Positions 38,956 through 55,764 of a stretch of DNA of 64,000 bases are shown piece by piece; the stretch's first letter is position 1, and each line of letters begins with the position of its first letter. The stretch comes from Octopus vulgaris. Taxonomy: Eukaryota. A program made the position numbers and the translations under genes. The stretch lies in the NCBI GenBank assembly GCA_951406725.2, contig OX597824.1, positions 6,944,001 through 7,008,000 of the forward strand. Direction: 5' to 3'. The notes beneath the pieces were generated by a model. The model saw nothing but the letters and a program-made list of their open reading frames with translations. It did not search any database and was not told where the DNA came from.

Positions 38956-39661
38956 TTTTATTTGTTTTAGTCATCTGTCTGTGACCAGGCTGGAGCACCA
39001 CCTTAAGTGAAACAAATTGACCCCAGGACTTATTCTTTGTAAGCATTGTTTTTTCCATCTGCCTCTTTTACCGAACCGCTAAGTTACAGGGATCTAAACA
39101 CACCAACATCAGTTGTCAAGCAATGGTGTAGGGGACAGACAGACATACATACATACAGACATACATACATATATATATATATAGCAAAACAGTTAAGATT
39201 CAAATGAATTCAAATGAATATGATACTTAACTTAGATGCACCAGAAATCTTTATGGTATTAACCATAAAATTATGTGGTGTGATTATAACCAAGAAAAAA
39301 GCAGATGCGAACTTAACCGTGGTATGACCAGCATCTTTCCTCATGTCTCTTGGAACTTATATCCACATCTTTATGAGTAGATTTATCTTCTCTGGGATGT
39401 CAATAATTAATTTAAAAACTTTGTATTGTTGGAAAACATATATAGTCTGCTTGGAATCTTACTTCAAATTCATGGAACTCACTCCTATAACTTCATAAGG
39501 ATATTTACACTCTCTAAGATGTTTGGAAAACCTATATGTGATTTAGCTGATGAATACTAGACATTATATTTGCTGTAATATTTGCAGCTTGAAATAAAAT
39601 GTTTATAGTATGAAACAATTGTACTAAACTACCGATCCATTCTTGTTGCTTTTTTCTTTGT

Positions 39662-53119: not shown

Positions 53120-53849
53120 CGTGAGTATGTAAGTATATTATACGCGTCAATTGCCATAAAATGTATCTATATCGTTTTCGGTCATTTGAAGGCGTGTTAC
53201 GTTTGCTGTCGACAATATTTATTGTATAAAAATGATTTTATTTTTATTTTTTCTAACACAACAAACTTCAAACAACTTTCAGGTTCAAAGGACGCACACG
53301 CCGCGCACGCGTGTGTGTGTGTGTGTAAATCGGCATGTGCCTGAGTGTGTGCGAGTGAGGTGCATATGTGTGTCAGCCTAGATTATCCAATGTGTGTACT
53401 TCGTTCTTAAGATGACAGACCGCGGCCTGAGGGAGAATTAGCCTATTAATTCTAGCAGGGTTAAGCGACCAACTGGTTCTCTCATTACTCTCAGTTTAAA
53501 CAGAGAGGTTGAAACATATTTTATCGAAAACAAAAAACATCAAAGAGCACAGTGGTTGCAGACAGACGCTTGGAGATTGTCATCAATGTTTTCAAAGCTC
53601 TTCCGAATCCGTCGTGATGTCCCCGACGTTGTTGTGTATTCGGAAGAGTTTAGTATAAACGTCAGAGTGACTTCTGCCCGGGGCACAAAGTACCTGCGAT
53701 GTTTATTTTCACACAACGTATTTTAATAAGTCTAGCACCAAAGACAGGCCGTGCGGGGATATTAACTCAACTCGAGAGAGAGGGGGGAGATGGAGAGAGA
53801 CGGAGGGAGATAGATAGAAAGGGAGAGAGAGAGGGGGGGAAGAGACAAA

Positions 53850-54242
53850 TCTCTCTCTATATAAAGCTGAAGTTGTCTGTGTGGCAGGTTTGGTAGCCTT
53901 CAACTAACACTTATCTCCTCCGAGACCCTGCAGCGCAAGTTGACCAAAATTGAGAGTATGATAGAAGAAGACTTGCTCTTCATTCCGTAGAAGATAAAAT
54001 TCAAATCAGACCATGTTAACACCAAAAATTATTTACATCAAAAAGGTGCTTTTTTTCTATGAAAATCCCTATTTTTTTAATGATTTTTTGACTGCTGTGT
54101 CGCCATTTTTCGGTGCATTTCAACCAGAAAAATGTTCACTTAAAGAGAATAACAAGCTACATAATGCAAAATTTTTACTTTTCAAAAATTCCAATTCTAA
54201 AGGGTCGAAACAAACCCGAGCAACGCCGGGTGATACTGCTAG
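53850..54242 (+). mobile_element. Non-autonomous Helitron
   Basis: A|TCTCTCTCTATATAAAG start; 3' hairpin CCCGAGC-AAC-GCCGGG about 8 nt before CTAG|T; sits between A and T with no TSD. Confidence 0.75.
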
Positions 54243-54678
54243 TATAGAATATTTTGGAAAACTTGATTCCGTCCTGTATGATATGAGGTTCTGTAGACGT
54301 TGAATTACATTTGGGAATGTTTATGCCATGCAGGACCGAGACCAACGTAATATCCGCATTCCTTCACATCACCAAATTGAAACTATTTGTTCAGCAATTT
54401 CCCTAATAAAAAAAAAGTTTATTTCCTTATTTTCTTTATTTGCAACTGAACAGTGAAAAATATAGTCGCACATGTTTTCCATGTCCACGAGTGAGTTGAA
54501 CAATGAAACACACATTGGAACACACACTCAGTCGCATGCGCGCACACGTCTTTCTTTTACCATATATATTGCTCTACATTTTAAATTGATGTAATTTTTG
54601 CATTGTTCAGTTAAATGGAGTCGCTTGAAAAGACTATATATATATACTCAAAATAAGCAACAAGGATATCTAGAGGTA

Positions 54679-54768
54679 ATGCAGTACGACCGTTTCATGC
54701 GACTCCATTTAAACTGAACAATGCAAACATTACATCAATTTAAAATGTAGAGCAATCTTCAGCTGCAT
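54679..54768 (-). ncRNA. Type I hammerhead ribozyme candidate with palindromic stem III
   Basis: ATGCAG-CTGAAGA-TTGC...GCAT-GAA-ACGGTCGT-A^CTGCAT: 6-bp helix I, intact CUGANGA and GAAA core, GUA cleavage triplet, self-complementary stem III; U-U at the base of stem II. Confidence 0.65.
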
Positions 54769-55006
54769 AAAAATATAGAATTTAGCTAAATGTTTGCATT
54801 GTTCAGTTTAAATGGAGTCGCATGAAACGGTCGTACTGCATTACCTCTAGATATCCTTGTTGCTTATTTTGATTATAAGCACCCCATTTTGAATTATATG
54901 GATAATACTATACTAAATTCTGGTGCCTTTAACTTAAGTACCATATTCATCTGAATCTAAATTTTACTATATATATTCAAAATAAGCAAAAGGATATCAA
55001 GAGGTG

Positions 55007-55094
55007 ATGCAGTACGACCGTTTCAAGAGACTCCATTAAACAGAACAATGCAATCATTACATCAATTTGAATGCAGGGCTGTCCTCAGTTGCAT
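55007..55094 (-). ncRNA. Hammerhead candidate, diverged second copy
   Basis: ATGCAA-CTGAGGA-CAGC...TCTT-GAAACGGTCGTA-CTGCAT; the core differs from the first copy only at the variable position 7. Confidence 0.5.
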
Positions 55095-55764
55095 AAATAA
55101 ATATATCGTTTTCAATTAGTTGGACACATTAATATAGTTTTACTTAAATTCTCTAATAGAGCAGGAAGATGGAAAAAGTCCATGTTGCTACCAATGTAGC
55201 TCAAAATATACTACACTTCTAAGAACTGTATGAAGTTTGTTAGGGTCATAGCTTGTAACAGATACGCCCGATGATGCTAGTATGGACTTCAGAGTTACAG
55301 AATTTTTTTCCCCGTAAGACAGTTAGAACCCGGAACCATGTGGTTCGTAAGCAAGCTACATACAACACAGCCACGTCTGCGCGTATGTTTAATTAATTAT
55401 ATCATAAAACAGATAGAATCAAGACAGCAGAAGTGTGTGTGTGTGTGAATAACAATTATAGTCTAGCGAATTTCGTGTATGTTATATCAGCGATCTGTAG
55501 AAATTGCATAGTTTTTAAGAAATGAAAATGAATTTACAATTCTGATCAAATTTCACGTTGGGACGTAAGTATATTAAACGTTTTCTTTTTAGTTTTTTTT
55601 TTCTTCTTTTCTACAAAAATATCTGAGATATAATTAAATTCAATTTAGAAAAAGAACCCCCCACCCCCCTACAAAAAAAAAAGAAACAAAACAAACTCAA
55701 ACTTTTTTTAATCACTCAGTAGACGTCTTCGGTTTTCAGCGTGGCTATTATCATTCAGTGACCA

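Follow-up and report, generated by a model that had tools for sequence, protein, structure and literature searches.

A hammerhead ribozyme motif within an inverted array of probable 5′-truncated Hydra-type Penelope-like element ends in Octopus vulgaris

The window, a 64-kb stretch of Octopus vulgaris DNA, holds four related pieces (A to D) of the 3′ end of a mobile element, lying in TA repeats (Table 1). Very probably these are 5′-truncated 3′ ends of a high-copy Hydra-type Penelope-like element (PLE), B and C likely deriving from one head-to-head insertion and D from an older, independent one; the hammerhead in B is then likely an inert passenger, of a kind predicted to serve the element's source copies as a dimer or with help from protein. 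An earlier note on this DNA had placed a hammerhead array at 54568..55100. Its extent has been enlarged: A is added as a fourth partial copy, C continues to 54968 and D to about 55258.

Table 1 Positions in the window of the four pieces, their TA runs and the parts of the hammerhead in B
Feature	Position	Strand	Description
Copy A	54568-54633	+	short 3′-end fragment between TA runs: stem II region and G12-A15 box only
(TA)n run	54635-54647	.	target at outer (3′) end of B (read from sequence)
Copy B	54643-54791	minus	5′-truncated 3′ end of Hydra-type PLE, short 3′ end, ~40 nt past predicted cut
Helix I of B	54763-54768 with 54679-54684	minus	6 bp, all Watson-Crick
C3-A9 box of B	54756-54762	minus	
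Stem II of B	54697-54755	minus	59 nt
G12-A15 box of B	54693-54696	minus	
Stem III of B	54686-54693	minus	8 nt, self-complementary, two G-U wobbles
Predicted cut of B	54685/54684	minus	after GUA triplet
Copy C	54789-54968	+	inverted partner of B; 3′ half of ribozyme and longer 'tail' end, ~133 nt past cut
(TA)n run	54969-54977	.	common target of 3′ ends of C and D (read from sequence)
Copy D	54969-55258 (end approximate)	minus	sister-subfamily piece; core boxes 55082-55088 and 55021-55024 intact

A complete type I hammerhead motif can be read from the minus strand of B at 54679-54768. The helix I, core and GUA triplet described in the earlier note are all there, and with them the core boxes and NUH triplet of a type I hammerhead. 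A custom descriptor, as the note had proposed, requiring a helix I of at least 6 bp and a fully palindromic stem III, matched once in the 64-kb window and in none of 60 shuffled windows, so the motif is not a chance occurrence. The proposed scan with the Rfam model Hammerhead_1 gave a divided answer: the full model aligned to B, with the long stem II handled as an insertion, at a score of 19.5 bits, below the cut-off of 34, and at that cut-off the model misses the long stem II of this lineage. The hammerhead was absent among the 150 listed of 191 matches from an Rfam scan of the whole window; those listed were only microRNA-hairpin models on repeats, MIR841 at 54648-54871 being the B/C inverted repeat. 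A PDB sequence search returned 0 matches.

The canonical G10.1-C11.1 closing pair of helix II is absent in B; U.U takes its place in 107 of 119 family copies, and the position is paired in some sister families. Stem II had been called a long loop and is instead predicted to be a folded extension (−14.9 kcal/mol). Stem III is self-complementary with G-U wobbles, as had been seen, and this is the minority form: its 18-mer has 621 exact genomic matches, against 2199 for the variant in which A stands for the base at window 54690 and the palindrome is purely Watson-Crick. The motif in B is complete and likely self-cutting.

Judged by comparison of related families, as the earlier note had suggested, the motif in B is real as a hammerhead: its helices co-vary and its core is kept. 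Among 13 family representatives the core is invariant except at N7, both partners vary in 12 of 19 proposed pairs, and 92% of cells are paired. Slid controls gave 26-46% and none of 500 shuffles reached the observed covariation, a result that is not a probability, the 13 representatives sharing ancestry. With RNAalifold, helix I and stem III are found again, as is the hairpin inside stem II; the stem II foot is not. For the single family, 191 profile hits gave 135 full-length copies, of which 119 remained after removal of duplicates. Variants present in at least 4 of these fall in 0 of 12 core columns as against 40 of 77 columns of flank and stem II extension (p = 0.0004), a count in which roughly half of the copies had been chosen by their 3′ half. 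In the 39 chosen independently of the ribozyme the trend is the same (0/12 against 18/77) and is not significant (p = 0.12). Rare substitutions are equal, at 1.6% in the core and 1.9% in flank and extension (p = 0.53). The covariation across families is stronger evidence than the core-column test, and the pattern reads as selection on source elements with neutral decay of inserted copies.

The ribozyme motif sits at the 3′ end of elements with a reverse transcriptase (RT), an N-rich linker, a GIY-YIG endonuclease (EN) and a 3′ UTR of 1.2-2 kb; upstream of the copies are ~2 kb of AT-rich UTR and then a broken endonuclease, the N-rich linker and a broken RT. The linked GIY-YIG and RT ORFs for which a genome-wide search had been proposed were found. 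At locus L137, RT, EN, UTR and ribozyme are collinear on one strand, with a ribozyme 92% identical to B and a broken ORF; at L132, L133 and L134, EN, UTR and ribozyme (92-93% identical to B) lie on one strand. The pieces are 5′-truncated 3′ ends of an element with RT and EN, and the 'non-autonomous cassette' of the earlier note finds no support.

Translations read by eye give the endonuclease a CxCX5C linker, C-terminal CxxC and CxH, and no CCHH. In PMC8557442, the CxCX5C linker with C-terminal CxxC and CxH defines the Hydra clade. Pfam matches to GIY-YIG are weak (E 0.001-0.01). Pfam detected no RT in three intact sister-family ORFs, PF00078 was found in 1 of 120 homologues listed, and the RT was assigned through a motif match to the Hydra-1_Obim alignment rows. 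The sister families (from 150 scored of 9193 candidates) have open ORFs of 842-1091 aa, 68-78% identical to the query RT; three of 984, 1091 and 842 aa carry RT plus GIY-YIG at the C terminus, upstream of the ribozyme. RWK and DKT, read in sister families only, occur together in the ORF of L196, and DKT in L199 and L205. The direct pLTRs of L196 and of L197 are 99% identical and each contains a ribozyme, the unit being ~4.6 kb from pLTR ribozyme to pLTR ribozyme. Among the loci examined (150 of 9193 candidates scored) every ORF seen of the lineage of B was broken, so that a sister family could have mobilized the youngest copies in trans. From its motifs, TA targeting and hammerhead foot, the parent is likely a Hydra-clade PLE, in agreement with the earlier assignment of the array to a Penelope-like element with a type I hammerhead, palindromic stem III and an inverted terminus.

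Several other elements were encountered in these searches. In the Hydra-type sisters L196-L198, L212-L213 and L199-L200 (e.g. L196 2295-5246), many copies hold open ORFs of ~980, 1090 and 842 aa and some have direct pLTRs 99% identical; these families have likely been active recently. At L062 (5806-7560, minus strand) a 5′-truncated 584-aa ORF with RT and GIY-YIG lies beside a family copy. It belongs to another PLE clade (CxxC linker, CCHH-type nuclease), which we take to be Neptune-like, and was rejected as the linked ORF: it has its own ends and its own ribozyme-like motif and is 23% identical to the Hydra-type ORF. That ribozyme-like motif has the U.U foot of stem II found in the Hydra-type family. 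L131 was also rejected as a full element with direct pLTRs, its upstream ribozyme being a separate insertion ending in TA. A long asparagine-rich insert between RT and endonuclease is present in L096-L125 and L196, as has been described in Adineta Penelope families (PMC3846280).

In the 2.8-Gb genome, a search with B gave 3552 first-look candidates; in each of the 40 scored, the best full-length match was 94-100% identical. A survey of 120 loci of 3 kb, 119 with a match, found a single copy in 85. The 119 loci contain 36 neighbouring copy pairs, of which 33 are divergent like B/C, 3 convergent (2 of them in the window) and 0 same-strand, counts slightly inflated by the overlap of L152/L153 and L163/L164 and by near-duplicate loci. 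Two same-strand copies within 3 kb occur at 1 of 119 loci, the window itself. Among 30 loci the 3′ ends were short in 13, long in 11 and other in 6, and a TA run stands at one of two end positions in 24 of the 30. The 5′ ends of family copies are ragged over 15 to >1800 nt, some reaching EN and RT. Near-identity including the flanks on one contig (L068/L069/L070 and L085/L086) marks some copies as segmental duplicates or as copies inside a larger repeat.

Within the array, A is 92% identical to the family copy L007 over 66 nt and 95% to B over 64 nt; too little of the motif is left for a ribozyme. B is 95% identical to L007 over 149 nt, with 3/116 differences from its nearest copies, and C is 94% identical to L007 over 181 nt. 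By eye, the tail of C is similar to the 5′ UTR coming after the upstream pLTR in the intact relative L196. B and C overlap by 3 nt at their junction (54789-54791). The perfect 84-bp inverted partial copy reported earlier stands at 54789-54872, and the arms are complementary at 88 of 89 positions overall. D is 88% identical to L082 over 288 nt and differs by at least 14/116 from any sampled copy. The earlier note had called the cassette recent, which suits B/C (3/116 from nearest copies, arms differing at 1/89) and not D. It had also described D as a second same-strand copy some 330 bp away changed only at N7. The predicted cuts of B and D are indeed 328 nt apart on the same strand, and N7 is the sole change in the core boxes, but 19 of 116 aligned columns differ from B, helix I has an A.C mismatch at its core-proximal pair and the stem II foot is unpaired.

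The hallmarks of PLE insertion, namely 5′ truncation, an adjacent inverted copy, a tail and, in full copies, direct pLTRs, are present, and insertion into (TA)n is seen at the window junctions; within the TA runs a target-site duplication cannot be read. An adjacent inverted 5′-truncated copy, with an optional tail, is the form of PLE insertion given in passages of PMC8557442 and PMC3846280. As B has a short end and C a long one, each at its own TA run, with a 3-nt overlap between them, a single insertion event is probable; D uses the run at 54969-54977 too, from the side opposite to C, and is most similar to another subfamily, which points to an older, independent insertion. A Poseidon protein was found in vitro to nick both strands, to extend them and to begin reverse transcription at two internal positions (PMC11167929). 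By analogy, the protein of the present element would nick both strands of AT-rich DNA and prime reverse transcription at two internal sites of uncleaved RNA, leaving outward-facing 3′ ends, one short (B) and one tailed (C), both stopped early; two such internal start sites would explain the tail. Selection on source elements holds the core constant as helices I-III vary pair by pair, which the covariation shows, and inserted copies would presumably decay neutrally. No promoter belonging to B is in view, and in any read-through RNA C would trap B in a hairpin of 89 bp.

A local inverted duplication of DNA after one insertion, rather than retrotransposition, might have made B/C (and A): the arms are 99% identical, the junction overlaps by 3 nt and A has one minority base in common with B/C. 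However, the 3′ ends of the two arms differ, each being typical of the family and lying in a TA run of its own; the geometry is repeated at some 30 unrelated loci and is the PLE structure described in PMC8557442 and PMC3846280, and in the loci sampled the breakpoints of inverted pairs keep to the two 3′ ends of the element, so that a local origin is highly improbable. Rather less improbable, though still unlikely, is a retrozyme-like but not tandem origin in which a non-autonomous derivative, consisting of the ribozyme-bearing 3′ end and UTR, gave the youngest B-type copies and was moved in trans by an intact sister Hydra family. The ORFs seen in the B lineage are all broken while the sisters have open ORFs of 842-1091 aa and near-identical pLTRs, and an origin of animal retrozymes from PLE pLTRs has been proposed (bioRxiv 10.64898/2026.07.22.740005). 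Against it, the 5′ ends are ragged (15 to >1800 nt) and run into EN and RT, and neither a fixed short unit nor tandem arrays were seen in the fraction of copies sampled.

The earlier note had supposed a non-autonomous cassette whose two same-strand copies, B and D, could act together as a dimeric ribozyme when transcribed jointly, the inverted copy C being able to sequester it. In favour, B and D, 328 nt apart, agree in their 8-nt stem III variant and both keep the core boxes intact, tandem hammerheads with a weak stem III cleave as dimers (PMC4209133), and C is complementary to both. The sequestering half of the proposal holds in prediction, the duplex of C-antisense with B reaching −151 kcal/mol over 89 bp and that of C with D −111 kcal/mol. 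The same trap counts against the dimer: forcing B into the ribozyme fold against C carries a predicted penalty of 36.7 kcal/mol, whereas the self-duplex of stem III in the window form is worth a predicted −5.8 kcal/mol. D moreover belongs to another subfamily, with its core-adjacent mismatch in helix I and no stem II foot; the layout is found at 1 of 119 loci; the stem III variant that they share is a common one, with 621 matches; and no host exon or transcript was found. With B trapped by C and D damaged, a B-D dimer in a window transcript is very unlikely on these models, and we find the cassette proposal as a whole scarcely credible. For the isolated B monomer, a frequency of 0.04% is predicted for the hammerhead fold. 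Within source elements, the ribozyme would naturally dimerize with the other pLTR or with a second molecule. A host exon suspected at 53541-53693 received no support, none of the 149 scanned of 165 candidate ORFs passing the Pfam cut-off; an intron of a large gene is still compatible. Contigs of 4 runs for the window and of 4 presumed RNA runs for L196 contain the families, with neither a spanning contig nor an empty site, and without a poly(A) end or a cut end; ends do not show in contigs, which give evidence neither way.

At ~53860-54245 is the end of a very high-copy repeat with a depth jump at 54200-54245 and a short GC hairpin near its end, presumably Helitron-like. Elsewhere in the window (39542-39628, + strand) there is a second, independent Hydra-type hammerhead with a 5-bp helix I, intact core boxes and palindromic stem III; its 58-nt stem II contains AATAAA and it resembles the sister family of L209/L211. 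Another type I hammerhead family, above the Rfam cut-off, was met in L191, L192 and L195 (~1500-1610); in L191 and L192 its 77-nt stem II has a predicted branched fold, and AATAAA comes just after helix I. Further, unrelated motifs that resemble hammerheads and have a palindromic stem III adjoin family copies in L130 (two inverted copies near one end), L193, L194, L199, L205, L208 and L211, suggesting that TA repeats collect many PLE families.

The extended stem II spans 48-60 nt in all lineage representatives, with a co-varying inner hairpin. In 11 of 13 representatives its 3′ strand has a hexamer, AATAAA or ATTAAA, whose end lies 14-26 nt ahead of the predicted cut; the representatives share ancestry and so are not independent events. 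The spacing of hexamer and cut is compatible with a canonical poly(A) signal. The hexamer is also present in 105 of 119 B/D-type copies, and a U-rich tract comes after it; the background is 1-7% per site. It switches only between AATAAA and ATTAAA, its pairing is not conserved, and it is kept down to families 68% identical in RT; copies B and D of the window have both lost it. These observations raise the possibility, put forward tentatively and more doubtful than not, that in this Hydra PLE lineage the hammerhead has absorbed the element's polyadenylation signal into the extended stem II. Ribozyme cut and host 3′-processing site would then lie at about the same bond, and folding of stem II would choose between polyadenylated mRNA, self-cleaved RNA and the read-through template, the form that in fact becomes inserted. 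If true, a poly(A) signal inside stem II would have a concrete, testable role in 3′-end choice. Long stem II forms may already be on record in the article by Lunse et al. (2017) on PLE hammerhead variants. No report of a poly(A) signal within PLE hammerheads was among the literature listed, the checked passages of PMC6155905 and PMC3846280 included; by eye, several of the published Hydra rows in File S2 of PMC8557442 have a similar hexamer just outside helix I. Ribozyme cleavage was found unnecessary for insertion in vitro (PMC11167929). The window locus itself matters little, being one of thousands of dead ends; the lineage is more useful, as a series of kindred PLE families, of which several have intact ORFs and pLTRs that are nearly identical, with strongly co-varying ribozymes.

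The element is of a known kind and its insertion pattern ordinary; new, as judged from the sequences compared, would be the conserved, structured stem II of 48-60 nt with its predicted poly(A)-signal hexamer. The present array resembles the animal non-LTR retrozymes, in the parts of PMC7229834 and bioRxiv 10.64898/2026.07.22.740005 that concern them, in its type I hammerhead, non-coding nature and dimer logic, but those are head-to-tail tandem monomers whereas this is an inverted, truncated array. The retrozyme arrangement, head-to-tail units each with a complete ribozyme, would place neighbouring copies on one strand, which was found in 0 of 36 pairs. With Poseidon PAc of Anolis (Frangieh et al. 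2024, PMC11167929), whose ribozyme is protein-assisted, it shares two 3′ end positions (the tail), AT-rich targets and inserted copies extending beyond the ribozyme cut. PAc is of another clade, however, and its ORF starts inside the ribozyme rather than >200 nt downstream as here (L196). Cervera and De la Pena (2014, PMC4209133) described minimal PLE hammerheads of metazoans that are alike in type I form, weak palindromic helix III, dispersed single copies from truncated PLEs and pairs 100-700 bp apart on opposite strands; their activity is low even as dimers. Their consensus has the G10.1-C11.1 pair, absent in B and present in some sister families, and their stem II is far shorter.

The closest likeness is to the Hydra-clade PLEs of Craig et al. 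2021 (PMC8557442), in the C-terminal GIY-YIG, CxCX5C linker and terminal CxxC/CxH, in the RWK and DKT motifs (here from the intact relative L196), and in (TA)n targeting, type I hammerhead and palindromic stem III. The rows of Penelope-1..8_HM in its File S2 have the same U.U and short UGC/GCA stem at the foot of stem II. Hydra-1_Obim, so far as its published rows go, is alike by eye in RT and EN motifs, but is a different family whose ribozyme is unrelated in its stems. The published elements are <3 kb, generally so and as a tendency rather than a definition in that source, compared with ~4.6 kb here (L196), a length owed to the N-rich RT-EN linker and the 1.2-2 kb 3′ UTR. In the Hydra rows of File S2 the stem II loops are 3-10 nt, whereas stem II in the octopus lineage is 48-60 nt long and contains the inner hairpin and the hexamer.
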